A stretch of 61,148 nucleotides of DNA. Source: Alphaproteobacteria bacterium UBA3637. GTDB lineage: Bacteria > Pseudomonadota > Alphaproteobacteria > CAAHEQ01 > UBA3637. Of the stretch, positions 22,324 to 60,647 are shown one piece after another. The stretch is taken from positions 1 through 61,148 of the forward strand of contig DFKU01000050.1 in NCBI GenBank assembly GCA_002373615.1, written 5' to 3'. Under the pieces are notes generated by a model. The model was given only the letters and a program-made list of their open reading frames with translations, made no database searches and had not been told where the DNA came from. Each line of letters starts with the position of its first letter. Within the stretch, counting starts at the first letter, position 1. A program made the translations under genes and the position numbers.

Positions 22324-24399
22324 ATGAATTTAGAAGTTTTACCGGGATTGCCTTATCCGTTAGGGGCCAATTATGATGGCAACGGAGTCAATTTTGCTTT
22401 GTTTTCCAAAAATGCAACACGGGTGCAATTATGTTTGTTTGACCACAATGGAAAAAATGAAAAAAGAATTGATCTGCCGCGTTTCACAGATGAAGTGTGG
22501 CATGGGTATATCAAGGGTTTGAAATGGGGACAAAGATATGCCTACCGTGTATATGGTCCCTATGAACCCGAAAAGGGCATGCGTTTTAATCCCCATAAAT
22601 TGGTCTTAGATCCCTACGCCAAAAAATTGACGGGCCCCGTGATTGCCAATAATGCTCAGCTGGGGTACAATTTAAGTTCAGAAAAACAAGACCTTTCACT
22701 GTCGCGCAAAAATGATATGGATTTTATGCCCAAATGTATCGTGGTGGATGATAGTCATTTTGATTGGAGAAATTCCCAAAAGCCCCGTTTGAATTGGGAT
22801 GAAGAAACGATTTATGAAACACATGTCAAAGGATTCACCGCCTTGAATCCCGAGGTTGAAAAAGCCTTTCGTGGAACCTTTAAAGGCTTATCGCACCCCA
22901 AAGTGATTGAGTATTTAAAATCCTTACAAATTTCGGCAGTGGAATTATTACCCATCGCCACCTTTATGACAACAGGACCTTTACAACAAAAAGGCCTCAC
23001 CAACTATTGGGGATACGATCCTATTTTATTTATGTGTCCTTATGCACCTTATTTGGCTTCTGGAGGAGTATCTGAACTGAAACGAGCAGTGCGATTACTC
23101 CACGAAGCAAACATTGAGGTCATTTTGGATGTCGTTTATAATCACACTGCGGAAGGCAATCAATTTGGGCCTACGCTTTGTTATCGGGGGATTGATAATG
23201 CGGTTTATTATCGGTTAAATCAGGAAAATCCGCGTTATTATGAAGACACAACTGGTTGTGGCGCCAGCTTTAATTTGGGGCACCCCCGCGTTTTGCAATT
23301 GGTGATGGATAGTTTGCGGTATTGGTCCGATACCATGCAAATTGACGGGTTCCGCTTTGATTTGGCCACCACTTTGGCACGTGACGATAAAAACACTTTC
23401 GTGCGTAATTCTGATTTCTTAAGCATTGTGCAACAAGACCCAGAGCTGCAACGCTTAAAATTGATTGCCGAGCCTTGGGATTTAGGGGAAGGCGGCTATC
23501 AGGTGGGATCTTTCCGCCCCGGCTGGGCCGAATGGAATGACAAATTCCGTGATACTGTGCGTCGTTTCTGGAAAGGCGATTATAATCAGGCGGCCGACTT
23601 TGCCAAGCGCATGACGGGTTCCGCTGATGTGTATCAAAAAAATGGGCGCAAGCCTTGGGAAACTGTGAACTTTATCACAGCACATGACGGCTTCGGGTTG
23701 GCGGATTTGGTGAGTTTCAATCAAAAGCACAATGAAGCCAACGGGGAAGACAACCGTGATGGAACGGATAACAATTCGTCTTGGAACGGGGGCGTGGAAG
23801 GTGCCACAACAGATAAAGCTATCTTAAAAAATCGCTCAGATCGGGCGCGCGCCATGATGACATCGCTTTTGTGTTCAGCCGGCACCCCAATGATTCGGGC
23901 GGGGGATGAAATTTTACAAACAAACCATGGCAACAATAACCTGTATGCGCAGGATAATAAAACCTCATGGATTGACTGGGAACACATAACGCCTGAGGGG
24001 AAAGAAATGCAGAATTTGGTGAAGTGGCTGATGAATTTCAGGCGCAACCACAAAGTCATGGAATACCATGATTTTTATGATGAAGGCGACTTTGTTTGGT
24101 ATCGCCCCGACGGGCAACCCATGACACCAGAGGATTGGCAGAATTATGTGAGGGCTGTATCCTATTTTATCCGCCAAGATCAAACACGGCTTTTCTTCAT
24201 TTTCAATGCTTTTGATCAGGCCATTAAATGGAAATTACCCGTTTTGGAAAAAGGGCGTAAGTGGCAAATAAAATTAGATACCTCGGACACAAATCCATTA
24301 TTGCGTGGCGGGCAAATTATGGTGCCCCCTTGGAGCGTTTTAATTTTCACCGGCAAAGATGAAAAAGAAGGCCACACATGTAAAAATAATCCCATATAA
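22324..24399 (+). CDS. glgX: Glycogen debranching enzyme
   Basis: 691 aa. GH13_11-type motifs (DVVYNHT, GFRFDLA, AEPWD, ITAHDGF). Confidence 0.93.
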   Translation: MNLEVLPGLPYPLGANYDGNGVNFALFSKNATRVQLCLFDHNGKNEKRIDLPRFTDEVWHGYIKGLKWGQRYAYRVYGPYEPEKGMRFNPHKLVLDPYAKKLTGPVIANNAQLGYNLSSEKQDLSLSRKNDMDFMPKCIVVDDSHFDWRNSQKPRLNWDEETIYETHVKGFTALNPEVEKAFRGTFKGLSHPKVIEYLKSLQISAVELLPIATFMTTGPLQQKGLTNYWGYDPILFMCPYAPYLASGGVSELKRAVRLLHEANIEVILDVVYNHTAEGNQFGPTLCYRGIDNAVYYRLNQENPRYYEDTTGCGASFNLGHPRVLQLVMDSLRYWSDTMQIDGFRFDLATTLARDDKNTFVRNSDFLSIVQQDPELQRLKLIAEPWDLGEGGYQVGSFRPGWAEWNDKFRDTVRRFWKGDYNQAADFAKRMTGSADVYQKNGRKPWETVNFITAHDGFGLADLVSFNQKHNEANGEDNRDGTDNNSSWNGGVEGATTDKAILKNRSDRARAMMTSLLCSAGTPMIRAGDEILQTNHGNNNLYAQDNKTSWIDWEHITPEGKEMQNLVKWLMNFRRNHKVMEYHDFYDEGDFVWYRPDGQPMTPEDWQNYVRAVSYFIRQDQTRLFFIFNAFDQAIKWKLPVLEKGRKWQIKLDTSDTNPLLRGGQIMVPPWSVLIFTGKDEKEGHTCKNNPI

Positions 24400-24417: not shown

Positions 24418-25734
24418 TTATTCACATAAAGCTACAGGGTATGTTGAATACATCAACCATTTTAAATGTGGGTACATTCTTTCATAACCACTGGATTCTA
24501 TTGTTTGAGTATATCCATTAGTACAATCTTTTTCTAAATCCACATGGAATATTCCAATATAAGAACTTCCCAAATTTTCACTTTCCGCATTAAAAGCATT
24601 ATAAATCCATTTATCGCGGGCATTTACATAATCAGGAGTAACATTCGAACAATTTTCCAATGACCGCAATGTTTCTAATGTCACCAAATGCCCCTGATGA
24701 CCATCGATGGTTAACCTTTGACAAAAGTTTTTTGCAGACCAAGAAGTCATTCCCGCTATTGAACGAACAAAGTGTTTCTTTAAATTTTTTTCTTTATTGA
24801 TCCATGCATATACATCTGTGTATGTCGGTATAGGCTGACACGTTCCACGAGTAACTTTCACACATGTGTGAGAAGAATCACTATAATCCCCCTTTTGTTC
24901 GCAGTATTGTTCGGTATTTTCACACCATTGATTTGAGGTGCAATACGACACTTGGCGACACCCTTTGCTTCCATCACTGGACATATCGCAAACTTCATTT
25001 GATTCACAACAAGTATCACCACAAGGGGAACGCTGGTCCCCACAAAGACATTCCCCAGCAAAACAAGATGTTCCATCCATACATGAATCGCAACATTTTT
25101 CTTGACAAGAACCCGCATATTGTCCAACTCTACACCATTCAAATCCTGCAGCGCTACAGGAGATATCATTTATAAATTCCCCTGCGACAGGGTTGGTCGT
25201 CATATCATTATTATAAACCATCAAGAAAGTATTATCATCACCGCAGGTGGTAAGGGCTGTTTTAGGGCTATCCGTTGTTGATAATCTGCGGATAACTGTA
25301 TTATCCCCCAAAGTATTCAGGATATTCTGACAGATTTCTTTGTTCACACCTGATACTTTAATCCCAAATTGGCCTTCAGGTAAATTATCCGCTTTGGTAT
25401 AAACTTTTGCATCAAATATGGCATAACCCAAATTATTATTGGTAAATTCCGTTAAAGTTGGATTAGCATTATTTTGTAATTGAATTTGTGGGACTACCAA
25501 GGTCGCCCGTTTTTGGGCTTCATTGATGATGGTATTCGCTTTATTCTTATCCATCGCATTTTTAAAACCCGCTATTCCTGCAACAGACAAAACACCGATG
25601 ACAGCCAACACGCCCAGCATTTCGACCATGGAACGACCTGATTCTCCGTCATTCTGAGGGCAACACCCGAAGAATCTGATACCAGATCCTTCACTACGTT
25701 CAGGATGACGATATACTTTATAATTTTTACTCAT
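24418..25734 (-). CDS. Prepilin-type N-terminal domain protein, paralog 3, with Cys-rich spacer and a C-type-lectin-like C-terminus
   Basis: Start ATG at 25734 (RBS GGAAAAGG). The leader MSKNYKVYRHPERSEGSGIRFFGCCPQNDGESG|RSMVEMLGVLAVIGVLSVAGIAGF contains an in-frame MITE. Conserved head (FGIKVSGVNKEICQNILNTLGDNTVIRRL...FLMVYNNDM). C-terminus ...MTSWSAKNFCQRL..GHLVTLETL...WIYNAF...YPVALCE. Confidence 0.75.
   Translation of the reverse strand: MSKNYKVYRHPERSEGSGIRFFGCCPQNDGESGRSMVEMLGVLAVIGVLSVAGIAGFKNAMDKNKANTIINEAQKRATLVVPQIQLQNNANPTLTEFTNNNLGYAIFDAKVYTKADNLPEGQFGIKVSGVNKEICQNILNTLGDNTVIRRLSTTDSPKTALTTCGDDNTFLMVYNNDMTTNPVAGEFINDISCSAAGFEWCRVGQYAGSCQEKCCDSCMDGTSCFAGECLCGDQRSPCGDTCCESNEVCDMSSDGSKGCRQVSYCTSNQWCENTEQYCEQKGDYSDSSHTCVKVTRGTCQPIPTYTDVYAWINKEKNLKKHFVRSIAGMTSWSAKNFCQRLTIDGHQGHLVTLETLRSLENCSNVTPDYVNARDKWIYNAFNAESENLGSSYIGIFHVDLEKDCTNGYTQTIESSGYERMYPHLKWLMYSTYPVALCE
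25647..25710. mobile_element. Palindromic MITE-like repeat inserted in frame in the prepilin leader of 24418..25734
   Basis: On the minus strand: CGTCATCCTGAACGTAGTGAAGGATCTGGTATCAGATTCTTCGGGTGTTGCCCTCAGAATGACG. It has terminal inverted repeats and translates to HPERSEGSGIRFFGCCPQND. Confidence 0.6.
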
Positions 25735-26064: not shown

Positions 26065-26140
26065 GACCCTATCGTCTAGAGGCCTAGGACATCGCCCTTT
26101 CACGGCGGTAACGCGAGTTCGAATCTCGCTAGGGTCACCA
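26065..26140 (+). tRNA. tRNA-Glu (anticodon UUC)
   Basis: Folded by hand. Acceptor GACCCTA/TAGGGTC. D-arm GTCT-AGAGGCCTA-GGAC. Anticodon stem TCGCC/GGCGG with loop CTTTCAC. T-arm GCGAG-TTCGAAT-CTCGC. CCA is encoded. Confidence 0.92.
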
Positions 26141-26698: not shown

Positions 26699-27007
26699 AT
26701 GAAACAAGTCATTGAAAAAAATGATAAAAATGATTTTTATATGTCCTTTTTAAAAGAGGTGGGTTCCCATATGCGTGAATATCGAAAAAAACAGGGAATA
26801 ACACAGGCTCAAATGGCACAAAAACTGGGAATGGCCTTTGTTAGTTATAACAGTATAGAACGTGGGATTGTTGGGACAACCGTCAAAACACTTTACAATA
26901 TTTCCCAACTTTTGGGAGTCTCCCCTGCCAGACTTATGTGTGATAAAGACGAAATTTTGTTCTCCAAAGCGGATATTGCCAAGTTTTATAGTCAGGGGGG
27001 AAAATGA
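26699..27007 (+). CDS. XRE-family HTH regulator, first gene of the glycosyltransferase operon
   Basis: QGITQAQMAQKLGMAFVSYNSIERG. Its stop overlaps the next start (ATGA). Confidence 0.7.
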   Translation: MKQVIEKNDKNDFYMSFLKEVGSHMREYRKKQGITQAQMAQKLGMAFVSYNSIERGIVGTTVKTLYNISQLLGVSPARLMCDKDEILFSKADIAKFYSQGGK

Positions 27008-28173
27008 AAAAACTGTTATTTGATATTGATTTTTTATTGGCTTCTTCCGGAAAGGAAACAGGTATTTGTCGGGTAGCTGTTCAGGTTTTACGTGAATTAT
27101 TTCAAAGCTCAGAATACGAAATTTACCCATTGATTACATGTCCCACAAAAATTGATCCTGTTAAATATCTAACCTCAAAAGGAATAAAAATCCCCCAAAA
27201 GAATATAGTCTATTTAAAGTATTTAAAGGCAACTTATGGCGGGTACAAAACAAAACACAGGATAGCGGCAAAAATTCTGAAATTATTGTGTGGTGCAAAG
27301 TATAAAAGAGAGTTAAAAAAATATGATGAATATATCAGTATTTTTTCACCCATTTCCCCTTTGGTTTTTGAAACTGGTCTCAAAACAAAGCTGTTTATCC
27401 ACGATATGGTCCCTATTAAATTTTCAAAGGCCTGTAATAAAAAATTTGTTCAAAAGTACACCTATTGGATGAAACACATAAAGGCTGATGAATTTATTTG
27501 TGTTTCAAAGCATACTCAAAAAGATTTCTTGGAATTTAGACCCGATATCCCAACGGAGAAAACAATGGTCGTTTATTTGGCGGCTGATGAACGCTTTAAG
27601 CCGACACATGATGCACAAATTAAATCTAAATATGGCATTAAAACACCTCGCTATTTTCTGGGGGTTTCTGATCATAATCCACGCAAAAACTTTTCGCATC
27701 TGATTCAATCTTTTATTGAATTTATCAAAAAAGAAAAAATCCATGATATTTCTTTAGTTTTGGTGGGACCCAAAAAACATTTTAGTGAGATTGAAAGTTT
27801 GGTTGGTCATTTGACAGAACTAAAGGATAAGATTATTTTAACGGGATTTGTTCCTGATGAAGATTTGCCGGCACTTTATAGCGAGGCGGAACTTTTTATT
27901 TACCCCAGTTTATATGAAGGCTTTGGACTGCCTGTATTGGAAGCTATGCAATGCGGGACCCCCGTTTTAACAGGTGATAATACCTCTTTACCGGAAGTCG
28001 GGGGGGATGCGGTAGAGTATATTTCCGGAAAAGATATTTTGGAAACCGTTCAAAAAATGTTTGAGCTTCACCAGAATACCGCCAAGCGTCAAAAAATGGC
28101 TGCCGCAGGTTTGAAGCGGGCACAAAAGTTCAGCTGGACCCAAACGGTTGATCAAATTTTTAGATTAAAATGA
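27004..28173 (+). CDS. GT4-family glycosyltransferase
   Basis: EGFGLPVLEAMQCGTPVLTGDNTSLPEVGGDA (Glycos_transf_1 signature). Confidence 0.85.
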   Translation: MKKLLFDIDFLLASSGKETGICRVAVQVLRELFQSSEYEIYPLITCPTKIDPVKYLTSKGIKIPQKNIVYLKYLKATYGGYKTKHRIAAKILKLLCGAKYKRELKKYDEYISIFSPISPLVFETGLKTKLFIHDMVPIKFSKACNKKFVQKYTYWMKHIKADEFICVSKHTQKDFLEFRPDIPTEKTMVVYLAADERFKPTHDAQIKSKYGIKTPRYFLGVSDHNPRKNFSHLIQSFIEFIKKEKIHDISLVLVGPKKHFSEIESLVGHLTELKDKIILTGFVPDEDLPALYSEAELFIYPSLYEGFGLPVLEAMQCGTPVLTGDNTSLPEVGGDAVEYISGKDILETVQKMFELHQNTAKRQKMAAAGLKRAQKFSWTQTVDQIFRLK

Positions 28174-28185
28174 AAGAGGAATATA

Positions 28186-29457
28186 ATGAAATTGATGTTT
28201 GATGCAACAATTTTAGCAAGTGGTTCAGAAAAAAGCGCAGGGCGTAGTGGTATTTTTTTTACGGCGTATCAAATTTTTAACGAATTAAAACGAAATAAAA
28301 ATATAGATTTAATTTTTTATTGTCCGCCCACACAACAAATGTCTTTAAAAAAAACAAAAGAATTTCAAGATGTCCCCCTTTATCCTAAAGTGACATTATT
28401 TGACAAGTGGTATGGCTTTTTACGGCATAAAAAAAGGTCTTTTAAGATAAATCATAAGATGACTTTGAAAATACTTTGCCATTATGTTTTATTTTTTGAA
28501 AGTTGTCTTTTTTATATTCCCAATAAAATTATTAAAAAAATGCAACCGGATCCATCCCAATTAAATTTAGATGCTTTTTTTTCTCCGTGTAGGGCCATTC
28601 CGCCAGAAATCAATGCGTTAAACATTAAAAAATACATTTTATTACATGATACAATTCCATTGATTGTTCCCCAATATTTTAAAGATATGCAAAATAATGG
28701 GAGTTGGTTTTTGAAATTAATTCATTTTATAAAAGCGAACAAAGGAATACATTATTTTGCAAATTCAGGGTATACAAAATCTGATTTTTTAAAATATGTG
28801 CCAGAATTAACCTCAGAACAAATAACGGTAACACCTCTGGCTTGCTCTGATTCTTTTCATCCGTGTTCCAGGGAACAAACAATTAAATCCCTCAAAAAAT
28901 ACAATTTGCCGACAGATAAAAAATATGTCTTTTCTCTCTGTTCTTTGGAGCCAAGAAAAAATTTGATTCGTGCTGTTAAAACTTTTATTGAATTTATTCA
29001 GAAAAATAAAATTGATGATATGGTATTTGTTTTGGGCGGAGGCTACTGGGAGGATTTTATAAATAAATTGAGCACTGAAATTGCAGGGCTGGGTGATTAT
29101 AAAGACAAAATTATCAAGGCCGGCTATATTGATGATGAAGATTTGGCCCCGCTTTACAGTGGTGCTGAATGGTTCGTCTATACCAGTCAGTACGAGGGCT
29201 TTGGCTTGCCCCCCTTGGAAGCAATGGCCTGTGGTTGTCCGGTAATAACCAGTAACAATTCCAGTTTGCCTGAGGTGGTTGGGGATGCCGGTCTTATGAT
29301 TGATTGGGATTCCGATGAACAACATATCAAGGCGTATGAAGATTATTATTTTCACCCAGAATTACGAGAACAGAATCGCCCAAAAGGGCTTGTTAGGGCC
29401 AAAGAATTTTCTTGGGAAAAGACTGTCAATTTAATCGTAAAGGAAATGATGAAATGA
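28186..29457 (+). CDS. GT4-family glycosyltransferase
   Basis: [32 protein letters not shown]. Confidence 0.85.
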
Positions 29458-30974
29458 ATAATATTCTACACAAAAAACTGTTAAGAACTTATGGAGAGTA
29501 TTCTTCTCCTGAAATTTTTTCTTTTCACACATGGACGCAACCAAAGGTTTCATTGATTATCCCCGTCTATAATAAATATGAAATGACGAAAGATTGTTTA
29601 TGGTCTATCCTACAACATACAAAAGATGTTTCATATGAAGTCATTATCGCTGATGATTGTTCAACTGATGAAACGAAAAATATAGAAAATAAAATTACAG
29701 GAATTAAACATATTAGGACAAAGGAAAATTCCGGCTTTGGCGCAAATTGCACGAATGCAATTCAGTATGCTGAAGGAAAGTATATTGCCCTTTTAAATAA
29801 TGATATGCTATTTTATGATAATTGGCTGAAACCAATTATTGATACGTTGGAAAATGATTCCACTATTGGAGCCGCTGGCGGAACATTGATTAATCCGAAT
29901 GGAAAAGTCAGCGAGCTGGGGGGACTTATTTGGGGTGAAAGTAAAGCTATTCGTATTGGTAGAGATTGTACTTATTCTCCAAAATTAAAAAAACTTAATA
30001 CCGATTTTGATTATAAAAGTGGTTGTTGTTTAGTTTTAGAAAAAACTTTGTGGGATAAGGTGGGAGGCTTTGATCCAGCATTCAATCCTGCCTATTATGA
30101 AGATACAGATTTATGTTTTAAAATCCGTGAATTAGGTTTTAGAATCGTCAATGTTTTTGAATCACAAATCATTCATTTTGAAACGGTAAGCTATGGCGAT
30201 AAAGAATTTGAATTATCCGAAATTTGTCGACGCAATGGAAAATACTTTTTTAGAAAATGGCAAAAATTACTTAATAATCCCGACCGTATCAAAAAAATTG
30301 AAAAACGTGTGACGGAATATCAAAAGTATCAACAGAAAGAAATTTCTCATAGACTTTATTATAAGGAAAAATTACCAAATGGCAGACGAAATATTTATGT
30401 GTGTGGTCTTAAGGTATTTAGTTATAAAAAGAAAAGAAAAATGCAAGAATACGAAATATCTGAGGAGGTCATTTTAAAAGGGAATAACCAAGTATTTAAG
30501 GAAGCCTCGGTTAAAACTCAATTTCCAAATAGTATTGTTATCGGTAAGGGAACTCGTATTGGTCAAGATGTGACAATCAGTAATTATGAAAAAAACGGAC
30601 TTATAAAAATAGGTGAAAATTGTCAAATTGGCTGGAACAATAACTATTATGGACAAGGTGGCATTGAAATTGGAAATAATGTCTTGACAGCTTCATTTGT
30701 TTGCATTTTAACCAGTAATCATGGCTGGCAAGAAGTTGATCTGCCGATTATGGATCAACCCAGTACTTATAAAAAAGTCGTTATAGGAGACGATTGTTGG
30801 ATCGGCTATAACGTTATTATTTTAGCTGGGGTTCATATTGGTAAGCATGTGACTGTGGGCGCTGGCTCTGTTGTCACAAAAGATTTACCTGACTATTCTA
30901 TTTGTGCGGGCAATCCTTGCCGTGTCATAAAGAAATATAATTTTAACACAAAAAAGTGGGAGAAAGTATCATGA
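29454..30974 (+). CDS. Fusion of a GT2 glycosyltransferase and a hexapeptide-repeat acetyltransferase
   Basis: The ATG at 29454 overlaps the upstream TGA. The N-terminal half has VSLIIPVYNK...IIADDCSTDET...YEDTDLC (GT2). The C-terminal ~177 aa carry left-handed beta-helix repeats (IGDDCWIGYNVIILAGVHIGKHVTVGAGSVV). The junction peptide NIYVCGLKVFSYKKKRK sits between the two halves. Confidence 0.8.
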   Translation: MNNILHKKLLRTYGEYSSPEIFSFHTWTQPKVSLIIPVYNKYEMTKDCLWSILQHTKDVSYEVIIADDCSTDETKNIENKITGIKHIRTKENSGFGANCTNAIQYAEGKYIALLNNDMLFYDNWLKPIIDTLENDSTIGAAGGTLINPNGKVSELGGLIWGESKAIRIGRDCTYSPKLKKLNTDFDYKSGCCLVLEKTLWDKVGGFDPAFNPAYYEDTDLCFKIRELGFRIVNVFESQIIHFETVSYGDKEFELSEICRRNGKYFFRKWQKLLNNPDRIKKIEKRVTEYQKYQQKEISHRLYYKEKLPNGRRNIYVCGLKVFSYKKKRKMQEYEISEEVILKGNNQVFKEASVKTQFPNSIVIGKGTRIGQDVTISNYEKNGLIKIGENCQIGWNNNYYGQGGIEIGNNVLTASFVCILTSNHGWQEVDLPIMDQPSTYKKVVIGDDCWIGYNVIILAGVHIGKHVTVGAGSVVTKDLPDYSICAGNPCRVIKKYNFNTKKWEKVS

Positions 30975-31942
30975 TTTACGATTGTTTTACCTTTTTTAAT
31001 GAATTGGATTTATTGGAAATCCGACTGAATATCTTAAATGATGTGGTGGATAAATTTGTTTTAGTGGAAATGAACAGAACCTTCTCTGGGAAAAACAAAC
31101 CTTTGTACTATGAAGAAAACAAAGAACGTTTTTCAAAATTTCAAGATAAAATTATCCATGTTATTGTAACAGATTGTCCAGAATCAAAGGATAGTTGGAT
31201 ATCCGAAAATTACCAACGAAATTGCATCGCCCGAGGTCTCAAAAATTGTCAACCAGATGACGTTATTTTGATTTCTGATTTAGATGAGATCCCAAATCCG
31301 GGCTTAATCAAAAACTTGGATTGTTCACAAAAAATCTATCTATTGGAACAAAAAATGTACTATTATTTCATAAATTATTTAGATATTTACTCTCCATTAT
31401 GGCTCACAGGAACAAAAGTTTTGTCCTATCAAAATTTCTTACATGGGTTAGACCAAGTGAAAATCTCTTATTCCACTTTCCTGCCAGAAAGTTTAAATCA
31501 CGGGACTACAGCAAACAAAATTCGCTTATGGGATGGTGCAGAACATATTCAAAATGGAGGGTGGCATTTTTCATATTTAGGCGGAGTTGAGGCTATTGTC
31601 AAAAAGATTCAATCCTTTTCTCATCAAGAATTTAACACACCAACATATCTTGATAAGAACTTAATTTTAAAACGTATTCAAAATGGTGATGATTTATTTA
31701 ATAGGAAAGATCATAGATACTGGCCGGTTTATTTAGATCATACTTTCCCGCAATATATCTTAGATAATCAGGATAAATACAAAAAATTAATTTTTGAAAT
31801 TTCACCAAGACAACTTCTTTTAAGACGTATAAAATTGGTATTGAAGTCCATTTTAGCGTTTTTATACCATAAAGAAGAATCTATTGGACATCAAAAATTT
31901 TATCTGTTTGGAATCAAAATTTTGTCATATAAAAGGAAATAA
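30971..31942 (+). CDS. GT17-like (GnT-III-like) glycosyltransferase
   Basis: MIYDCFTFFNELDLLEIRLNILNDVVDKFVLVE...ISDLDEIPNP resembles Glyco_transf_17. ATGA start overlap. Confidence 0.6.
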   Translation: MIYDCFTFFNELDLLEIRLNILNDVVDKFVLVEMNRTFSGKNKPLYYEENKERFSKFQDKIIHVIVTDCPESKDSWISENYQRNCIARGLKNCQPDDVILISDLDEIPNPGLIKNLDCSQKIYLLEQKMYYYFINYLDIYSPLWLTGTKVLSYQNFLHGLDQVKISYSTFLPESLNHGTTANKIRLWDGAEHIQNGGWHFSYLGGVEAIVKKIQSFSHQEFNTPTYLDKNLILKRIQNGDDLFNRKDHRYWPVYLDHTFPQYILDNQDKYKKLIFEISPRQLLLRRIKLVLKSILAFLYHKEESIGHQKFYLFGIKILSYKRK

Positions 31943-31943
31943 A

Positions 31944-32849
31944 ATGTCATTTTTAAAAACACTTTATTCACGCAAAAAACTGTCTGATGGTCGTGTCAAA
32001 CAGAAAATATTCGGGATCTCCTTTAAATATCGCCCCAAAGATGGCCCTTATCCACCCGTAAAACATCCTAAATTAGGTGTTTCATACAGCGTATGGGACG
32101 GCGAAGAATTATTGGAAGGAGCCATTCGGTCTATCAGACCTGCTGTCGATTATGTCAATGTGGTATGGCAACGTTTATCGTGGCACGGAAAAGAATGTCA
32201 TCCTGATTTGGAAAAGTTATTGATTGACTTGAAAAACAAAGGATTGATTGATGAAATCATTTTCTTTGATTGTGATCCAAGCATAAATTCAAATGTGAAT
32301 GAATGTGCCAAGCGTAATTTGGGATTAGAGGCGGCCAGACAGGCAGAATGTACCCATTTTATGACCTTAGATACTGATGAATATTGGGATTTAGAGCAAT
32401 TTAAAATTGCCAAACAATATGTGTATGATAAAAACATTTCCCATTCTGCCTGTCCACATGTTTTATATCGAACACCGACTGTTAGACATTTAGACTATGC
32501 TGATTTTTTTATATCCTTTATTTATCGTATTGACCACGGTGAAAAATTTGTTAATGGATGTTTTGCAGATGAACTGCCTTGGCGCATGGATCCAACGCGA
32601 GAAATTCCTATAACCAAAAGAAGTCGTGTTTGTTTTTTGCACAATATTCTTTGTCATCATTACAGTTATGTCAGAAAAGATCTGATTAAAAAAATCAAAA
32701 ACACAGCCGCCAACCATAATGCCGAAGAAGAACAAAAATATCTAAACGAGTGGACATGCTCTGATACCCAGATGCAAGAACGTTTGAACTCGGGATATTA
32801 TGTCCCTGTTCCCAATCGCTTTCACATCAATATAGGAGAAGAAAAATGA
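31944..32849 (+). CDS. Putative GT-A-type glycosyltransferase
   Basis: Operon context and the DxD-like TLDTDEY. The family is not recognised. The ATG at 31944 has RBS AAAAGGAAA. Confidence 0.4.
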   Translation: MSFLKTLYSRKKLSDGRVKQKIFGISFKYRPKDGPYPPVKHPKLGVSYSVWDGEELLEGAIRSIRPAVDYVNVVWQRLSWHGKECHPDLEKLLIDLKNKGLIDEIIFFDCDPSINSNVNECAKRNLGLEAARQAECTHFMTLDTDEYWDLEQFKIAKQYVYDKNISHSACPHVLYRTPTVRHLDYADFFISFIYRIDHGEKFVNGCFADELPWRMDPTREIPITKRSRVCFLHNILCHHYSYVRKDLIKKIKNTAANHNAEEEQKYLNEWTCSDTQMQERLNSGYYVPVPNRFHINIGEEK

Positions 32850-33613
32850 CTCAGACACCACTATTGTCTATTGTTACAATTTGTTTCAATAATAGGGATG
32901 ATATAGAGCGCACCTGTAAAAGTATCGCTAGGCAAACATGGCATGATTTTGAATGGATTGTTATAGATGGTGCCTCAACTGATGGAACTTTAGAAATTCT
33001 AAAAAAATATGAAAAATTTATTGATGTTTTAATTTCAGAACCTGATACGGGACGATATAATGCAATGAATAAAGGCGTTTTAAGATCCAAAGGAAAGTGG
33101 TTAAACTTTATGAATGGTGGAGATGCTTTTCATCATCCAAATGTACTTCAAAACCTATCAGAATTTTTAAAAAATGATGAAGCTGATATTTTATACGGAA
33201 ATATGAATTTTATTACCAATAAAAAAGAACATCAAATTGTTACCTATCCTTTGAATATCACTGATCCCAATTATTTCTATGATGGCTGCATCTCTCACCA
33301 ATCCAGTTTTATCAAAAGATCATTATTTCAACAGTATGGTTTATATAATGAAAATTATAAGATTGTCAGTGATTGGGAAAAGTGGATAGTTTTTTCTTTA
33401 TTGAAGTGCAAATTTCGCCATATTAACCTTACCGTTGCAGATTTCTATGATGGTGGGATAGGATCATCTCCCTCTCCCGCACACATAAAAGAAAGAGAAA
33501 CGGTTCAACAAAGATATGGACTATCCCTCTCCATTCAAAACCAGAAATCTATAAATATAAAATATTATTTATTTGGATTTATCCCTATTTTAAAAATAAA
33601 GGAGCAAAAATGA
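32846..33613 (+). CDS. GT2-family glycosyltransferase
   Basis: LSIVTICFNNRDDIERTCKSIARQTWHDFEWIVIDGASTDGT. ATGA start overlap. Confidence 0.85.
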   Translation: MTQTPLLSIVTICFNNRDDIERTCKSIARQTWHDFEWIVIDGASTDGTLEILKKYEKFIDVLISEPDTGRYNAMNKGVLRSKGKWLNFMNGGDAFHHPNVLQNLSEFLKNDEADILYGNMNFITNKKEHQIVTYPLNITDPNYFYDGCISHQSSFIKRSLFQQYGLYNENYKIVSDWEKWIVFSLLKCKFRHINLTVADFYDGGIGSSPSPAHIKERETVQQRYGLSLSIQNQKSINIKYYLFGFIPILKIKEQK

Positions 33614-33804
33614 GTAAGATAAAATTGAAATTATTTTTTATCATTCCAATTTATGAGATAAAGGAGTCCTCAAACCGAAAAATTTGGAAAATTTTGGGTA
33701 TTCCGTTTCTAAAAAAGAAAATAAACAACAGGGGAACAAAAATTATCTATAAATTTTTAGGAATTCCTGTTTTAAAAATTAAAAGGAAATATCGCTATGA
33801 ATGA
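33610..33804 (+). CDS. 64-aa ORF made only of three copies of the GT 'junction' peptide
   Basis: KIKLKLFFIIPIYEIKE / KIWKILGIPFLKKK / KIIYKFLGIPVLKIKRK. It is coupled at both ends (ATGA at 33610, ATGAATGA at 33797-33804). Confidence 0.4.
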   Translation: MSKIKLKLFFIIPIYEIKESSNRKIWKILGIPFLKKKINNRGTKIIYKFLGIPVLKIKRKYRYE

Positions 33805-34684
33805 AAAAATTCCTTTAATCTGTGCAACGGATGAAAATTACGCACCCTTTGCATCTATAATGATGAAATCCGTTTTAATGCACACAAAATCTTTTATTGA
33901 TTTTTATGTATTGGATGGAGGAATAAAAGATAAAACAAAAAAATTGATTCAGGAAGATTTGAAGAAATATTCAAACCATGAATTACATTTTGTTGACATG
34001 TCTAAATTTAATTTATCCAAATTTCCATCTATACATCACTATTCAGTGAACGCTTTTTCCAGATATTTTATTCCTCTGATTCTACATGATTATAAAAAAG
34101 TATTGTACATGGATGTAGATATTATTGTAAGACGTGATATTACAGAATTATATCAACAAAATATGGATAATTTCCCAATTGCTGCTGTTTTAGAGGATTT
34201 TTACGAAGGAAATTATACTTATCTAAAACAATATATTTGGCCAAAATATACAGCGGGGGATCGTTATTTCAATAGTGGTGTTTTATTGATGGATATTCAG
34301 AAATTAAATAAAATGAACTTTACAGAAAAAGCTATTCAATTAACTTGTCAGATATATGATCGATTAAACACGGCAGATCAAGATATCTTTAACATTTTAT
34401 TTGAAAATAACTTTAAAATATTGGATTATCGGTTTAATTATATGCCAGATCATATCACTTTTTTGAAAGAGAAACACCCGGAAATAACATCTATAAACCC
34501 GGTTGTTCTTCATTATACAGCTCGAAAACCATGGAAGGCAAAAAGTTGTGCCTCTGAAGATTTTGAAAAGGTTTTAAATCAAAGCGTCTTTATGGAAAAA
34601 GTCGTATCTAAATATAAGACGTATGAATGTCTAACATATTATTTATTTGGATTTATCCCGTTTTTAAAAAAATATAAAATATAA
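33797..34684 (+). CDS. GT8-family glycosyltransferase (LPS/LOS glycosyltransferase type)
   Basis: ATDENYAPFASIMMKSV, MDVDIIV (DxD), NSGVLLMD, DQDIFN. Confidence 0.85.
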   Translation: MNEKIPLICATDENYAPFASIMMKSVLMHTKSFIDFYVLDGGIKDKTKKLIQEDLKKYSNHELHFVDMSKFNLSKFPSIHHYSVNAFSRYFIPLILHDYKKVLYMDVDIIVRRDITELYQQNMDNFPIAAVLEDFYEGNYTYLKQYIWPKYTAGDRYFNSGVLLMDIQKLNKMNFTEKAIQLTCQIYDRLNTADQDIFNILFENNFKILDYRFNYMPDHITFLKEKHPEITSINPVVLHYTARKPWKAKSCASEDFEKVLNQSVFMEKVVSKYKTYECLTYYLFGFIPFLKKYKI

Positions 34685-34727: not shown

Positions 34728-35021
34728 TTATTCCTTGGGATACTTAGCTTTAATTTCGGCAATTTTTTGTTGCCATAGATTTGTGTTATTTACCTTATCC
34801 CAGTAAATCATATCTAATTGTTCAGCAATGACTGGATATTCAGCCAAACGTTTTTCTGCGTAGGTCGGCTCTGGTTTTATTGGGGTATATCCAGCAACAT
34901 ACCAAGCCCCATTATAGGCTTGTTCCACTTCCATTTGTGTAAAACCAGATGGAACATAATTTCCCAAAGCAACATCACATTGTTTTGTTGCATCATTTGT
35001 TATTTTGGCATACTTAAGCAT
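34728..35021 (-). CDS. Small phage-type protein downstream of the tail fibre (possible assembly or accessory protein)
   Basis: 97 aa. It overlaps the tail-fibre stop by 8 nt. The call rests on position only. Confidence 0.35.
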   Translation of the reverse strand: MLKYAKITNDATKQCDVALGNYVPSGFTQMEVEQAYNGAWYVAGYTPIKPEPTYAEKRLAEYPVIAEQLDMIYWDKVNNTNLWQQKIAEIKAKYPKE

Positions 35022-36027
35022 TTTGGGCTCCTTTCACCGGATAAAAAATCATAGAAAAGTAAGATGTTGTCTGAGTTGCTTGATAAAACATATCTTTTGG
35101 AATAGGAAAAAGCTTTGTTTCATTATTTGAACAGTTAAAATAATCTCCTGCCACTTCCGTTGGATTAGACATATCATTGTTAGCTGAATAATTTAAGACA
35201 AATGTAGCGGTTGAACCATTTCCTTGTCCTCGGATTGAAATCCAGCCATCTGATTCGGCTTGGTAAATTGTATCCAAAGATTTACTGACACCAGATGAAA
35301 AGTCCGGCATACTCAACGCTATAACGGCCTCTTTACCACCAGTAGAAAGGTTATCCATATCTTTATTAGCCTTTGAGGTAAGTATAGCTGTGGCTTCAGC
35401 TGCTTTTTCTGTGGCAATTTGAGCTTTTGTGGTGGCGATATCCGCTTTATCTGAGGCAATGGTTGCTTTTGTCGTGGCTGTACTGGCGGCGGATTCGGCG
35501 GCTGTTTTATATCCATTTAACGTACTTTCCAAAGCGTTTACCTCAACTGTTGAGTTTTCCAAGTTTGTTCCATCGGCATTCCATACGATGGCTTTTCCCG
35601 CACTGGGGCTTGGCAGGGTTAAATCCAAATCATTGTCGGTTGCATAAGGGGGCAAGACCATAGAGCGGTTTAAATTTTCCGCAATCTGTTGCTGGCAAGC
35701 TATTTGATAATCCAATTCGTCGTTCAGGACTTTTGCTCGAAGGGTCGAACCTTCTTGAAAATCAGATGTCCGTTCAATGGATAAGTTGCGTACGATAGTA
35801 ATAATTATCCCTGATTCTGGGGCTGATTCAAAGGCTACAGAGCCACCATCAGAATGACGTGCCTCTGAGACCGTATAAGTAGAGGTGTCTTGTTTTGTAT
35901 CCCCAAAATAAACCTCTATATCTGTTGTTTTAAAAATAGCAAACGGGAACTCGTATTCTGTCGAAGTTCCGTCTGCCGTATATTGTATCCTTGGCTTAAT
36001 ACCATAGATTTTTACATGTTCTGTCAT
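35014..36027 (-). CDS. Phage tail-fibre protein (T7 gp17-like N-terminal domain)
   Basis: N-terminus ...IQYTADGTSTEYEFPFAIFKTTDIEVYFGD... and FQEGSTLRAKVLNDELDYQIACQQQIAENL fit the podovirus tail-fibre N-terminal signature. It also has a central Ala/Thr/Lys coiled coil and a distinct C-terminal domain. Confidence 0.6.
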   Translation of the reverse strand: MTEHVKIYGIKPRIQYTADGTSTEYEFPFAIFKTTDIEVYFGDTKQDTSTYTVSEARHSDGGSVAFESAPESGIIITIVRNLSIERTSDFQEGSTLRAKVLNDELDYQIACQQQIAENLNRSMVLPPYATDNDLDLTLPSPSAGKAIVWNADGTNLENSTVEVNALESTLNGYKTAAESAASTATTKATIASDKADIATTKAQIATEKAAEATAILTSKANKDMDNLSTGGKEAVIALSMPDFSSGVSKSLDTIYQAESDGWISIRGQGNGSTATFVLNYSANNDMSNPTEVAGDYFNCSNNETKLFPIPKDMFYQATQTTSYFSMIFYPVKGAQNA

Positions 36028-42520: not shown

Positions 42521-43522
42521 TTAAGTAATTTCTGTAATTGCGCGAATATTCCCATTACGATTAATTTGAACAACGCGCAATTTATCCTTCATTTCTTTAA
42601 AAAGTTTTTCTTCTTCTGAACCAGAAAAACTTTGGTGATTACTTTCGGCAATACGCCCGATAAAAGCACGATAGGCTTCATTTGGGTCCGCTGCATGAAT
42701 AGTAGCAAAACAGTTTTCATGTCCCGAATTCATCAGCTTCCAAATGGCATTCGCATTCGTTGTGGAAATTTCCCCCCCCAAAATCGCATCCGGCGTAAAA
42801 CGTACCACCAAATCAATCACATTCGCATAAGTAAAAGTATTTGTGGCTTCAGTACGAGAAACAACCAAGTGAACATGATTCGGTTGCTTTACAATCAATT
42901 CGCGGGTATCTTCAATGGTAATGATACGCTTATGTTCATCCAATAACTTAATCATATTATTCAAAAAAGTCGTTTTACCTGTAGCCGTTGCCCCGCTGAT
43001 CAAGATATTATCCCCCCGCTGAATGGATAAAACCAGACGTTCATAGGGGTCATCAGGATCTTCCACATCTTTTAATCTATTCAGTTGACGTAACCGTCCC
43101 CCTTGTGTTAAACCGAATTGTTCCATACCAATATCCAGATCTTCACGATACACACGAATGGCCATGGCAATACCACCCGTCAAATCATCATTATCGTACA
43201 TAACGTTCCGACCCGCTATCCCAGAAAAACGATGTCCGCCGGGAAGTGCTGCAAACACCACAGGCACCCCACCAACAGGATCATAGGCTAAGTCATAGGT
43301 GTTAGCAATGATGTACATAATATCATTCAAATATTCACGAGTCAGTTTTGGATCTTCATAATAATGCCACGGATGAGCATGTTTTCCCCTGAGACGCAGC
43401 CATATTCCCCCCGGATTATCTATTGCCACTTCTTCCACATTATCTTGGGAATACCAATAGGAAAGCGGCCGAAGGGTCATTTCTAAAACTTTATAGGTAT
43501 CTGTGATTGAAAGGGTACTCAT
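42521..43522 (-). CDS. virB11: Type IV secretion ATPase VirB11
   Basis: Walker A GATATGKTT, Asp box IITIEDTREL, Walker B PDAILGGEI, His box GHENCFATIHA. Confidence 0.9.
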   Translation of the reverse strand: MSTLSITDTYKVLEMTLRPLSYWYSQDNVEEVAIDNPGGIWLRLRGKHAHPWHYYEDPKLTREYLNDIMYIIANTYDLAYDPVGGVPVVFAALPGGHRFSGIAGRNVMYDNDDLTGGIAMAIRVYREDLDIGMEQFGLTQGGRLRQLNRLKDVEDPDDPYERLVLSIQRGDNILISGATATGKTTFLNNMIKLLDEHKRIITIEDTRELIVKQPNHVHLVVSRTEATNTFTYANVIDLVVRFTPDAILGGEISTTNANAIWKLMNSGHENCFATIHAADPNEAYRAFIGRIAESNHQSFSGSEEEKLFKEMKDKLRVVQINRNGNIRAITEIT

Positions 43523-43531
43523 CGTTTTCCT

Positions 43532-46500
43532 TTAAAAAAGAGGTTTGTCTTCCAATGGTACCGGTGCCACTTTTCGATCTGAAATATCCGGCATACGATC
43601 AGTGCCATCATAAATGGGCGTTTCCATTTCTTGTTGATTATTGGAAGGGATATCGGTATTAGAGGAAGCTGGCATTTTTTCATCCTGTTCTGAACGACGT
43701 TGTTGCGTCCATGAATTTATTCCCTGAGGTGTCTTGGCTTGGTATTCCGAATCGTCCTCTTCTTTCGGAGGATTTTTGTCCATATAATCCGCATCATCTT
43801 CTGGGGTTCGCAACCATAAATCCTGAGAAGGGAAGACGGTTAACCGAGTTCCTGAAGGAACAAAAATGACAGGAGGTGTTTGCTGAGCTTTAGCAATCAT
43901 ATCATCCAAAATATCACCTATTTTTTCGATGAATTGCTTGCGCGCATCATTCATTGCTTGAGAACGTTGAGACATTGTTTGAGATTGCGTTTGTTGTCCT
44001 GTTTGCATATTTGTTTGAACAGTCACTTCTTCATTCGTCGCCATTAAATATGAAACCGCAGAACTTGCCAGTGTAGACAAAACGGATGTCCCATATTTAT
44101 TCCATAACTGTTCATCCAAGTAGGCAGCGACCCCACCGCGCCCTTGTGCGTCCCCTGAATTTGATCCAGACAGATCGAAAGCAGAACCATCAGGTCGAAT
44201 TAACCGATTCCAAGAAATCTGAAGCTTTGCAACCCCATTGACTGCATTTTCACCTTCACCCCCAAATGTTCCAATTAAACGACTTCCTGCGGGAATTAAG
44301 ATATTGCGTCCTTCTTCCCCATAAATGTTTGTTTCAACGATCGCAATTGCAGGCACATCCGAATACCTGGAATCGATAGAACGCGCCAAAACTGCCGGAA
44401 TCGCCTTCCCCTGCAGGACAACATGTGTCATATCAACCGGCCAAGTGGAAATGGATTTTCCACTCACCCCGGCCTTTGTCCAATCTTTATCTTTTTTAGG
44501 TTTCGCCATTTCTTTTATTTTTGCAGAAATTTTAAGCGTACCAGCCCCACGTTCCCTTTGCGTTTTCATACCTTGACGACGTTTGTTAATTTTATCCGTA
44601 AAATCATCAATCTGTGCTTGCGTTGGTTTAAATGGCGTATGAATATCGGGACGTTCTCTGTTCCCAGAAACAGGATCCGACATTACCTTGTTATCCCATG
44701 TATAAGGACGTCCATCATCCCCTAAATATCCAATAATCATTCCACTTTCATCGGTTATCGTCCCATCTGAATTAACCATATAGGTGTTTGACCCAATATT
44801 GATAGCACGCGCAGGCCTATTTGATTTTCCCATACCAGACATACCACATTGCTTTAACAGTACAGAAACATCGATACCGCGAAAACTTTCAACATAGTTT
44901 CCATCTGGCGTAAAAACTTGCCCATCAGGGGTTACTGTATAAATCAAATCCCCATTTTCATCCCGCAATGTTCCATCAGCCATCAATGAAGCAATCTTTT
45001 GACCATCATATCCAACTAAATCACACCCAGAAAGGTACCCCAGGCCAGGAACATACGAGGTATGAATATCTGGCAGAGAATTACCCCATGGATCTGTGAG
45101 TTGCCCCTTTGGTGGCACAACAAATATGGGTTCTCCATTGGTTCCTTTCACTATATCATCACCTCCTTGGATATATTTTACAACACCCTCAGAATCTGAA
45201 AAAATGGTATTTTGTCCACCAACATTTATCCCTATTTTGTTCCCATTCCAATCATAAGCCGTACCAGATTCATCCACTTGACCAATATTACTTTCCCCAT
45301 TATAAATACTCCCATCTGAACGGGTCCAACCGATAATATTACCTTTCTCATCAATAATTACACCGCGTTCAACAATCGTACATAATTTTTCCCCGTTTGG
45401 TGCCAACATCTCACCAGAATTTGTGGCACACCCGATTTCAACCCCATTCAAATCCACCACAGTTGAATCAGGGAGGGTTCTCCCCATCAGTTGCTTCCCC
45501 GAAATACAGGGTTCATTATTTCTGACAACACGTCCTATTTTGGAACCATTGGCATCCACTGCCCACATATCACGTCCAATCCGCCCCACAACGGAACCTT
45601 GACCATTGATCACACGACCGTCATAAGCCGTTTGACCAACAATTTTACAATCATTGACCACTAATCCTTCCGGAATTAAAAAACCTTGAATACGTAGTTC
45701 ATCAATTTCTGACTCTGCATCATTCAACCGAACAAGTCCTGCATTGTCCACGCGCCCATGAACCTCCCCTTGATAAGAGATAACAGTCCCATCATAAGAG
45801 GCAATGCCCATTACATCCCCATCATTACTAACAGCGGACATAATCGGGAAAACACGCGCCACAACAGGGGGCTTTTGACCTGATTTATTTACAACATAAG
45901 CATTATCTGTGATACGGAATAATTTTTTAGCAGCATTATCAACAACATCCCCCAGGATGGTTGTACGTCCCAAAACTTTAAAACCTTGATTAAGTCCGAT
46001 CGGAAGGCCTTGTTGAACTGTATGACCTGCATAAGGCATACTGTTAAAGACAGCTTTTTCAGGCACACCTGCTACCGATCCATCCGGTAAAACACGCCCC
46101 GCAAAAACATTTTTATCCCCAACTATGGTGCCATCCACCGTAGAAACAACCCCATAATACGTTCCAATATCATCTACAATTCCCCCATTTGGCATAGTAT
46201 TTCCCAGCCACATATTGTCTGTTGAAAGCGCTGATCTGAAAGCCATTTTATTTCCAATTTGAATCCCTGATTTATAAACAGCCGCTGTTCCAGAAGTCAC
46301 CCCTGCAAAACTCCCACGTTTGTCAATGAATACATTAGGAGCATAAATACCTCCCATTAATTCCCCATTCGGAGAATAAACCAAGCCCGTCCCCGTCACA
46401 ATAGCTGTTTTTTTACCCGCTTTATAAATTTGTCCATCAGAAGCAACTGTACCAATCATCCCCAAGGTGGGCGTGATCGCCGCCCCAGAAGAAACCATTC

Positions 46501-50023: not shown

Positions 50024-50033
50024 TTAATTTCCT

Positions 50034-51707: not shown

Positions 51708-51776
51708 CTTTCCTCCCAATTTTTATTTAAATCTTTTGACATCTTAATCCAAAATCATCAGAATGTCCACACTTTT

Positions 51777-52487: not shown

Positions 52488-52504
52488 AAAAAATCCTTTT
52501 CCTA

Positions 52505-52681
52505 TTAACCAAGCCACTCAGGTAATTCGGGAGCTTTTTTCAATTCCAAACATGCACAGGGTGATTTTTTTAGTTCGGAATAATCTTTTCCAATCCCTAC
52601 AGGCTCTTGTTCATAAATGGAACCACACGCTACCAAGGCCAATACAGCCAATACAAGCAAAGTAACTGTTATTTTTTTCAT
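52505..52681 (-). CDS. virB7: VirB7-like small lipoprotein (58 aa), not in the ORF track
   Basis: My translation is MKKITVTLLVLAVLALVACGSIYEQEPVGIGKDYSELKKSPCACLELKKAPELPEWLG, with lipobox L-V-A-C. It sits between the two virB8 paralogs. Confidence 0.6.
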   Translation of the reverse strand: MKKITVTLLVLAVLALVACGSIYEQEPVGIGKDYSELKKSPCACLELKKAPELPEWLG

Positions 52682-52753
52682 ACAAAACCCTCCTTTTTTA
52701 ATATTTCCGCCTTAAATCCTAGCACAGAAAATAAAAAATAGCTAATCTTTTTT

Positions 52754-53386: not shown

Positions 53387-53400
53387 GGTACTCTCTTTCT

Positions 53401-54960: not shown

Positions 54961-54968
54961 CTTCCCCC

Positions 54969-55805: not shown

Positions 55806-55807
55806 AT

Positions 55808-56659: not shown

Positions 56660-56660
56660 C

Positions 56661-57509: not shown

Positions 57510-57522
57510 TATCATTGCCTCC

Positions 57523-58581: not shown

Positions 58582-58592
58582 GTTCAGCCTCC

Positions 58593-60557: not shown

Positions 60558-60647
60558 AAATTCCCCCTTTTTATAAGTATACTTATCCACAGAGTACAGG
60601 GAAAAATGGTGGATGTCAAGGAATTTTTTATGTTTTAAAAAAAATGC

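Follow-up and report, generated by a model that had tools for sequence, protein, structure and literature searches.

The question raised by the locus analyzed here is what kind of protein is encoded when a prepilin-like N-terminus is followed, in a single gene, by a Cys-rich stretch and a lectin-like end. The window, namely the whole stretch of DNA that was analyzed, comprises positions 1 to 61,148 of contig DFKU01000050.1 from Alphaproteobacteria bacterium UBA3637 (GCA_002373615.1), and the gene in question, referred to as paralog 3, is one of three related open reading frames (ORFs) in it. An initial annotation of the sequence had proposed these three ORFs, and all are indeed present where it had placed them; that paralogs 2 and 3 are encoded on the minus strand was not part of it. 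A fourth copy, paralog 4, was found on the same contig outside the window. The coordinates of all features are collected in Table 1.

We consider it probable that paralog 3 is a modular type IV pilin-like adhesin. In the proposed mechanism, the protein would begin with a class III (prepilin-type) signal, in which a hydrophilic leader up to a Gly precedes RSMVE, where Glu occupies position +5, and then about 20 hydrophobic residues that would open an alpha-1 helix of about 52 residues. The helix and a small head of beta-sheet would jointly constitute the pilin module, and a disulfide-rich spacer would keep a module of C-type-lectin fold apart from it. The pilin module may thus insert the protein into the inner membrane and, once the leader was removed, allow its incorporation by a type IV filament machine. 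Such a bulky subunit would most plausibly be located at the filament tip, where the C-terminal module would face the surroundings of the cell and act as a ligand-binding (adhesin) head. Many paralogs reuse this one carrier with different heads, alongside members of major-pilin size that present the same N-terminus.

The N-terminal pilin-like module

The family to which paralog 3 belongs has a near-invariant N-terminus, ..ESG/RSMVEMLGVLAxIGVLS (the slash denotes the putative cleavage site), which is followed by a head of about 140 residues. In alignments of 96 and 26 sequences, the Gly at -1 is nearly invariant and the Glu at +5 is invariant. The common motif, ESGRS[ML][IV]E.LG.LA..G.L, is carried by all three window paralogs, and a six-frame scan revealed exactly three copies of it in the window. 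Among the four copies found on the contig, synonymous codons differ at Gly-1, Arg+1, Ser+2 and Glu+5 (TCC, AGT or TCA for Ser; GGT, GGA or GGG for Gly), and this stretch is therefore translated and under selection at the protein level. The head motifs that had been described for the three proteins (FGI.V.GV.K..CQNIL.T.GD.T.IRRL and F[LM].[IV]YNNDM) are valid for paralogs 2 and 3, which are 51% identical over the module, while paralog 1 fits them only loosely (32%). With paralog 3 as the BLASTP query, paralogs 2 and 1 were retrieved at E 1e-46 and 1e-20, respectively, and paralog 4 matches paralog 3 at E 1e-30.

The assignment to pilins is supported by a profile of this module (A4, 26 sequences), which was searched against all PDB sequences. 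Type IV pilins were found at the top of the results (8tob, 2.3e-5; D. nodosus FimA, 2.3e-4; PilA, 1.5e-3; PAK pilin, 4e-3), with geopilin, PilE, TcpA and PpdD ranked lower. The alignment spans positions +2 to about +60 and is in register, with Glu+5 placed on Glu5 of the pilins and IG(V/I)L on the pilin IGIL that contains Gly14. When the same 26 members were scanned with the NCBIfam models, TIGR02532 was matched by 18 (best E 0.0096, below the cut-off), PRK10574 by 17 and PRK10506 by 15, while GspH was matched by two (best E 9e-7) and XpsH, GspG and GspI were matched weakly by others. In the Pfam scan of the short members discussed below, N_methyl (PF07963) was matched at E 0.004, with 15.5-17 bits as compared to a cut-off of 21.2.

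An AlphaFold2 model of paralog 3, calculated with the alignment of 96 sequences, reached a mean predicted local distance difference test (pLDDT) value of 79.5. The model contains a 52-residue helix (residues 35-86), followed by a four-stranded sheet and one helix (residues 106-175), all with pLDDT values above 90. Structure prediction had been suggested as a check of the prepilin-like signal and helix claimed initially, and both are supported by this helix and sheet, by the in-register profile match to PDB pilins and by the sub-threshold matches to TIGR02532 and N_methyl. When the whole model was compared to the PDB with Foldseek, the top three matches were full-length type IVb pilins in filaments, namely CofA (9iuf_A; probability 0.97, template modeling (TM) score 0.46 over 207 columns) and then TcpA twice, with CofB and PAK pilin ranked lower. 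The comparison yielded nothing at E<=1e-3 and no match below E 0.1, and the fold evidence should therefore be considered supportive rather than decisive.

Exchange of modules and extent of the family

The similarity between the window paralogs is limited to the N-terminal 55-65% of the proteins and their C-termini are mutually unrelated by BLASTP, as the initial annotation had stated. The mature proteins contain 25 (paralog 3), 18 (paralog 2) and 36 (paralog 1) Cys residues. The end of paralog 2 is well conserved and recurs in at least 20 homologs, with the signature VEYLESTGTQYIDTG ... IPVL.P.G.PCMFDKVS.KLFCNAG.G.F (or, in another form, VEYLE...IPVL..CMFD.V.KKLFCN.G.G.F), and a comparison of this module to PDB sequences, Pfam and PHROGs gave no match. 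The VEYLESTGTQYIDTG signature may resemble the ends of phage tail fibres. In paralog 1, no terminal domain was recognized in the Pfam and NCBIfam scans or by BLASTP. Paralog 4, which probably starts at MTESGRS, has a lectin-like C-terminal module that ends in YYSALCE.

A search with paralog 3 yielded 768 homologs at E<=1e-3. On the same carrier, these present several classes of C-termini, including lectin-like modules, discoidin (F5/F8 type C) modules, the module of paralog 2, Cys-rich regions only (as in paralog 1) and others; for discoidin (PF00754), the assignment refers to precomputed Pfam annotation of the homologs. Two proteins present this exchange most directly: P0002 has a carrier that is 64% identical to that of paralog 3 but a discoidin end, while P0015 has a lectin-like end that is 52% identical to that of paralog 3 on a carrier of only 23% identity. 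Judged from these sequences, module shuffling is evident, and the arrangement of a conserved head and a Cys-rich spacer with exchanged modules at the C-terminus, which had been proposed from three genes, holds across the homologs.

The metagenome-assembled genomes (MAGs) that contain the modular genes also encode short members, one of which has 3632 homologs. The short members share the N-terminus, which is preceded by leaders of 6-7 residues, and with a mature length of 113-132 residues they are of major-pilin size. The genes are often found in tandem arrays (e.g., loci L040 15995-18173, L029 8998-10001 and L032 974-1393), and some already bear the name PilE or, as given by the PGAP pipeline, 'type II secretion system protein'.

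To describe the host range, the peptide GRSMVEML was scanned in GTDB with one genome per species. This yielded at least 589 stretches, 565 of which were confirmed, and nearly all of the loci are found in MAGs labelled as Alphaproteobacteria from the human (Hadza, Nepal), ruminant and rabbit gut. Copy numbers per MAG can be high, as among 80 loci at least 14 copies were found in SUVA01, at least 13 in JAZRVC01 and at least 7 in JAFTHM01. A protein identical to paralog 3 occurs in two assemblies, one being ERZ12302819 NODE_347 (94.7 kb, from ENA and also in NCBI) and the other a 2-kb NCBI contig, AUXO012894406.1 (GCA_001684375.1). The suggestion of a probably intracellular or amoeba-associated bacterium is not supported by these data, as gut or rumen assemblies and MAGs are the source of the identical protein and of every relative, and nothing points to an amoeba symbiont.

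The lectin-like module and the Cys-rich spacer

The C-terminal module of paralog 3 falls, as a divergent member, into a module family characterized by the pattern ..M.WWSA.NWC.A.GK.LVSL.DLG...W..L...FG...YWT.d..ssC.AF.V........YALC[ERK], presenting 52-53% identity to P0015 and 12-32% to the other members. Two profiles of the module, A3 (29 sequences) and the broader A5 (36 sequences), were searched against PDB sequences. All 21 matches of A3 were C-type lectin domains (best E 0.0022), as were all 25 matches of A5 at E<=1, among them langerin (4.5e-5), mosGCTL-1 (6e-4) and L-selectin (7.5e-4, with 101 of 115 positions aligned). Single members gave weak Pfam matches to FGE-sulfatase, Xlink, Lcl_C and Lectin_C, all of which belong to the C-type lectin fold clan. 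Paralog 3 itself has no match to Lectin_C (PF00059) at E<=1 or to Lcl_C/DUF1566 (PF07603), and one of the 29 module sequences matches the former at E 0.047 and one the latter at E 0.044.

The first and last Cys of the module are invariant in both A3 and A5. Paralog 3 has four Cys residues in the module (mature positions 305, 329, 371 and 404) and these would correspond to the disulfide framework of the C-type lectin-like domain (CTLD), in which C1 in helix alpha-1 is bonded to C4 in the last strand, and to an inner pair. The EPN/QPD, WND and WIGL motifs are found neither in paralog 3 nor in the 36 module sequences; Ca-dependent sugar binding should thus not be assumed. When the module was modeled alone with AlphaFold2, the confidence was not better (pLDDT 67), and Foldseek gave the CTLD of rhodocetin as the top match at a non-significant E of 3.2, with nothing at E<=1e-3. 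The initial assignment of a C-type lectin domain is therefore upheld in part, since the profile of the module family matches CTLDs only, while paralog 3 misses the Lectin_C threshold and the second half of its module is poorly modeled. The module would best be called a CTLD-superfamily module, rather than a C-type lectin in the strict sense.

The description of the module as eukaryote-like is not sustained. The motifs mentioned above are missing, the weak Pfam matches include bacterial as well as eukaryotic members of the clan and the module is abundant in bacterial proteins, being found in 1125 representative clusters at E<=1e-3. Some of these proteins present a second carrier, in which an ordinary signal peptide that ends in ..A(F/L)AFGGGGG is followed by ..GVDSIGVH; examples among metagenome representatives are P0258, P0264, P0274, P0284 and P0300, in addition to others.

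The Cys-rich spacer contains 19 of the 25 Cys residues of mature paralog 3 and is modeled as short beta-hairpins with pLDDT values of about 80-90. With respect to the EGF/knottin-like label that the initial annotation had given to this stretch, Pfam gave no match in this region of paralog 3, Foldseek gave weak matches to SPARC/follistatin and to the EGF domains of MSP1-19 (E about 1-9) and Cys-rich-repeat Pfam families such as PF07699 are precomputed on some homologs.

The leader and its palindromic element

In 247 family proteins, the leader that precedes Gly-1 mostly consists of 6-9 hydrophilic residues, with MQNESG, MMKNESG, MTKLNQESG and MYKEKESG being typical. The leader of paralog 3 reaches 33 residues because a palindromic element of 23 codons is inserted in frame between MSKNYKV and ESGRS. 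The element is predicted to form a hairpin of -29.3 kcal/mol (z = -2.6). The same 33-residue leader is found on P0029, a homolog that is 48% identical over the best BLASTP segment (46% of the query), and two further members read through the element in the frame used by paralog 3. In some members, the 3' arm of the element (..CAGAATGACGG) provides the start codon (..AMTESGRS, ..GMTEESGRS). In paralog 3, the ATG within this arm is out of frame and the ATG at 25734 is the only in-frame ATG, while the frame itself stays open further upstream, back to a TTG at 25809. We assigned the start to the ATG at 25734 and infer that the long leader is tolerated. In type IVb prepilins, processing takes place despite a long leader.

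In other MAGs, family genes are likewise directly preceded by related palindromic elements (at about 9740 and 10001 in L007 and at about 10022 in L064). Gene callers often run ORFs through the element, which results in spurious long N-termini such as ..FAQNDG and ..GLAMT. A scan for promoters and terminators near the start of paralog 3 gave nothing above chance.

Search for a filament machine

Components of a filament machine were searched for among all ORFs of the related loci by regular expressions and phmmer, using Walker and His-box motifs, the VirB11 of the window, the ATPase of the relatives and a P. aeruginosa PilD sequence. In these 1.3-1.4 Mb, the only component found was a conserved ATPase of the T2SSE family in MAGs of gut Alphaproteobacteria (Pfam 2.7e-28; NCBIfam PilT/PilU 7.5e-30 and ComGA 2.3e-26, all below the cut-off). 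This ATPase has 1089 homologs at E<=1e-10, some of which were named 'TadA' by PGAP. In L025, it carries an N-terminal extension of about 350 residues with Pro-rich repeats. In L025 and L039, the ATPase gene lies 4-5 kb from family genes; this proximity was rejected as evidence of a linkage, as these loci had been chosen for their family genes. On long contigs, the neighborhoods of modular genes, short pilins and the ATPase contain only housekeeping genes in every case, and any such system has its genes scattered across these genomes.

Table 1 Features of paralog 3, its relatives and other genes considered. Positions refer to the window unless a related locus (L) is named.
Feature	Position	Strand	Description
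Paralog 3	24418-25734	-	438 residues from the ATG: leader, pilin module, Cys-rich spacer, CTLD-like module
Leader of paralog 3	25636-25734	-	33 residues: MSKNYKV, 23-residue insert, ESG; Gly is -1
REP-like (repetitive extragenic palindrome-like) palindromic element	25647-25710	-	In frame inside the leader; translates as YRHPERSEGSGIRFFGCCPQND
Type IV pilin-like module of paralog 3	25195-25635	-	Residues 34-180: R+1, E+5, hydrophobic N-terminal part of alpha-1, long alpha-1, four-stranded head, one Cys pair
Cys-rich spacer of paralog 3	24847-25194	-	Residues ~181-296; 19 of 25 mature Cys; short beta-hairpins
C-type-lectin-fold-like module of paralog 3	24421-24846	-	Residues 297-438; divergent member of the module family ending in ..ALC[ERK]
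Paralog 2	2345-3526	-	393 residues: pilin module, Cys-rich spacer, C-terminal module unlike that of paralog 3
C-terminal module of paralog 2	2345-2890	-	~180 residues
Paralog 1	259-1584	+	441 residues: more divergent pilin module, then long Cys-rich region (36 Cys)
Paralog 4	L085 6764-7933		~3.2 kb outside the left edge of the window, on the same contig; 389 residues as called
T2SSE-family ATPase	L025 16443-18326; L039 14900-16234; L089 10001-11443; L090 10001-11233		MAGs of gut Alphaproteobacteria
Partial type IV secretion cluster	42521-60677	-
VirB11	42521-43522	-
VirB10/TrbI	43532-50023	-	Unusually large (2163 residues), at least 4 beta-flower repeats
VirB9/CagX	50034-51719	-
VirB8	51777-52517	-
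Seven ORFs	52754-60677	-	Signal peptides predicted for most; no Pfam matches

When 18 ORFs of the window were scanned with Pfam, a type IV secretion cluster was recognized rather than a pilus machine, and neither VirB4 nor VirD4 was found near this cluster. A tie between the family and this secretion system was considered and rejected, as family genes occur far from vir genes. The signals of VirB2- and VirB5-type pilins differ from that of the family.

Paralog 3 itself is placed between glgX (22324-24399) and a gene for tRNA-Glu (UUC; 26065-26140, plus strand), the latter being directly upstream and divergently transcribed. Further along the window, glycosyltransferase genes are found in an island of low GC content, 32-36% (27004-34684, plus strand), which is adjoined by a gene for a 337-residue protein with the N-terminal domain of a phage T7 tail fibre (35014-36027, minus strand).

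Contrary evidence and alternative explanations

The identification of paralog 3 as a modular type IV pilin-like adhesin is faced with several contrary observations that should be considered together. Arg is found at +1 in all four contig paralogs and in nearly every homolog, whereas the known pilins have a hydrophobic residue at +1, usually an N-methylated Phe, and Arg+1 is, to our knowledge, unlike any characterized pilin. Paralog 3 scores 9.9 bits on TIGR02532, where the cut-off is 16.3, and has no Pfam match at E<=1; for the three window paralogs taken together, the curated Pfam and NCBIfam models gave none above threshold and nothing useful at E<=1. The Foldseek matches to pilins (E 0.11-0.37, TM score 0.34-0.46) are not significant, and only the first half of the C-terminal module was modeled with confidence, the second half having pLDDT values below 50. 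The leader of paralog 3, with its inserted palindrome, is of a length that is atypical for the family. Furthermore, no prepilin peptidase, platform protein (PilC/GspF) or secretin was found in positions 1526-81944 (about 80 kb) of the source contig, and no parts of a pilus machine other than the ATPase were found in 1.38 Mb of related loci. The ATPase is always solitary amid housekeeping genes, and in the neighborhoods examined the family genes are solitary as well, beside rplQ, groEL, rpmJ/lon or glgX/tRNA-Glu. Finally, two giants of 6368 and 4335 residues contain 20 and 13 stretches of the lectin-like module, respectively, behind pilin-like N-termini, and these are hard to picture as filament subunits because such long proteins would have to pass a secretin.

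Part of this evidence would also suit the main alternative, a pilin-like N-terminus that serves for export or anchoring only, as a signal-anchor or a pseudopilin-like stub. The proteins would then be located in the inner membrane or cell envelope or be released, with no extended pilus being formed, and the family would merely descend from pilins while serving for display at the surface or in the periplasm. The lack of a pilus machine near any family gene, the presence of the same N-terminus on the giants and the Arg at +1 all agree with this explanation, as does the occurrence of the lectin-like module behind an ordinary signal peptide, which points to a general module of the envelope. Nonetheless, we regard it as unlikely, since the strict Gly-1, Glu+5 and Gly14 fit cleavage and filament packing, while a plain membrane anchor needs none of them. 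Tandem arrays of major-pilin-sized members are, moreover, hard to explain if no polymer is formed, and the lineage conserves a PilT/TadA-like ATPase.

The matches to GspH in two members (9e-7), the weaker ones to XpsH, GspG and GspI in others and the name 'type II secretion system protein' given by PGAP to some short members could instead indicate that the family represents pseudopilins or substrates of a type II secretion-like system, where the short members would build a periplasmic pseudopilus and the modular ones a GspK/GspH-like tip. This seems improbable to us, as no GspD, GspE, GspF, GspL or GspM genes were seen, as the best PDB matches are type IVa and IVb pilins rather than pseudopilins and as dozens of variable binding modules per genome are unlike a secretion piston. 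The last explanation concerns paralog 3 alone, which would be a decaying copy in an otherwise functional family, no longer made or processed after the palindrome broke its start or leader. The 3'-arm ATG that serves as the start in other members (MTE(E)SGRS..) is out of frame here and the sole in-frame ATG leads to a leader of 33 residues rather than the usual 6-9, both of which speak for decay. Yet the ORF of 438 codons is intact and identical in two assemblies, the diverged paralog P0029 keeps the same leader, two other members read through in the same frame and long leaders do not prevent the processing of type IVb prepilins, all of which makes decay very improbable. A modular type IV pilin-like adhesin is thus the explanation that we favor for paralog 3.

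Comparison with known systems

The closest known design is that of the modular pilins of Streptococcus sanguinis, where PilB carries a vWA module and PilC a concanavalin-A-like lectin module (PMC8179133, PMC9934059). Like these, the family combines a small N-terminal pilin module with a C-terminal ligand-binding module, for which display on a filament is proposed. A survey of modular pilins through IPR012902 identified more than 1200 proteins with 264 architectures (PMC8179133). In agreement with the definition by Raynaud et al. (2021), paralog 3 presents a pilin module at residues 34-180 and a further module at residues 297-438, and in homologs discoidin (PF00754) is found in the same place. 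The initial annotation had described the architecture as differing from the standard pilin layout; this is correct with respect to classical pilins, while a pilin module with a grafted module is a design that had already been published (PMC8179133). The family is thus a non-canonical variant of the modular pilin design. Unlike PilB and PilC, which have the canonical IPR012902 signal, it has Arg+1 and misses the curated models, and contains a long Cys-rich spacer and a graft of probable C-type-lectin fold, and no machine was found for it in the loci searched. Its many paralogs (at least 13-14 per MAG) are scattered singly or in small tandem arrays, in contrast to the pil operon of S. sanguinis. 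The main text of the survey contains no mention of C-type lectin or discoidin modules (PMC8179133).

Structurally, the best matches to the AlphaFold2 model are CofA and TcpA (type IVb) and the tip minor pilin CofB of enterotoxigenic E. coli (9iuf_A, 8uhf, 5ypz), with Foldseek E values of 0.1 or higher and sequence identities of 12-17%. CofB resembles the proposed arrangement in having a pilin module, a linker and extra beta domains at the tip, and type IVb prepilins resemble paralog 3 in tolerating long leaders. The modules of CofB are, however, unrelated to those of the family, and the Cof and Tcp genes are found in dedicated operons. GspH and GspK, the minor pseudopilins of type II secretion, share a pilin-like N-terminus, with weak matches to the GspH model in two members, and GspK is a pilin of the filament tip into which an additional domain is inserted. 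In the family, by contrast, the added modules are found at the C-terminus and are variable and lectin-like, the copy number is far higher and no type II secretion genes were seen.

For the C-terminal module, the CTLD superfamily (langerin/CD207, L-selectin, mosGCTL-1) is the sole class of PDB matches of the module profile. The likeness includes the W-x-x-A-x-x-x-C helix, the C-terminal ..ALC[ERK] strand and the invariant first and last Cys, which resemble the C1-C4 framework. The bacterial relatives of this superfamily are Lcl_C/DUF1566 and FGE-sulfatase, together with the Link module, and paralog 3 falls below the thresholds of both Lectin_C and Lcl_C.

Implications for the family and its hosts

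The family is very large and lacks annotation, and it is probably confined to uncultured Alphaproteobacteria of the gut and rumen, where it probably displays interchangeable binding modules at the cell surface. In our literature search, the motif GRSMVEML was found in no paper, and the search gave nothing useful on pili of gut RF32-type Alphaproteobacteria. Standard surveys of the IPR012902 type would miss the family because Arg+1 keeps it below the curated signature. Modular pilins are the current explanation for new pilus functions, and the family would represent an extreme natural case, with dozens of carrier-plus-head genes per small genome and with heads being exchanged between carriers. 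The Arg at +1 also raises the question of which peptidase cuts the Gly-Arg bond and whether or not the new N-terminus is modified.

The hosts are common uncultured members of the human and ruminant gut, for which attachment to mucus, food particles, microbes and host cells is barely known, and the catalogue of lectin-like heads provides concrete candidates for binding studies. More tentatively, and with considerable doubt, one can propose that these bacteria have made the pilin N-terminus, with an obligatory Arg+1, the common carrier of an extensive binding repertoire that is shuffled rapidly and ranges from pilins of 115 residues to giants of 6368 residues. The repertoire would be served by a dispersed, minimal type-IV-filament-like machine, of which the orphan PilT/TadA-like ATPase would be the one part seen. 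If this proved true, the family would form a branch of its own within the type IV filament superfamily, dedicated to surface display, and would differ from ordinary pili that contain a few minor pilins.

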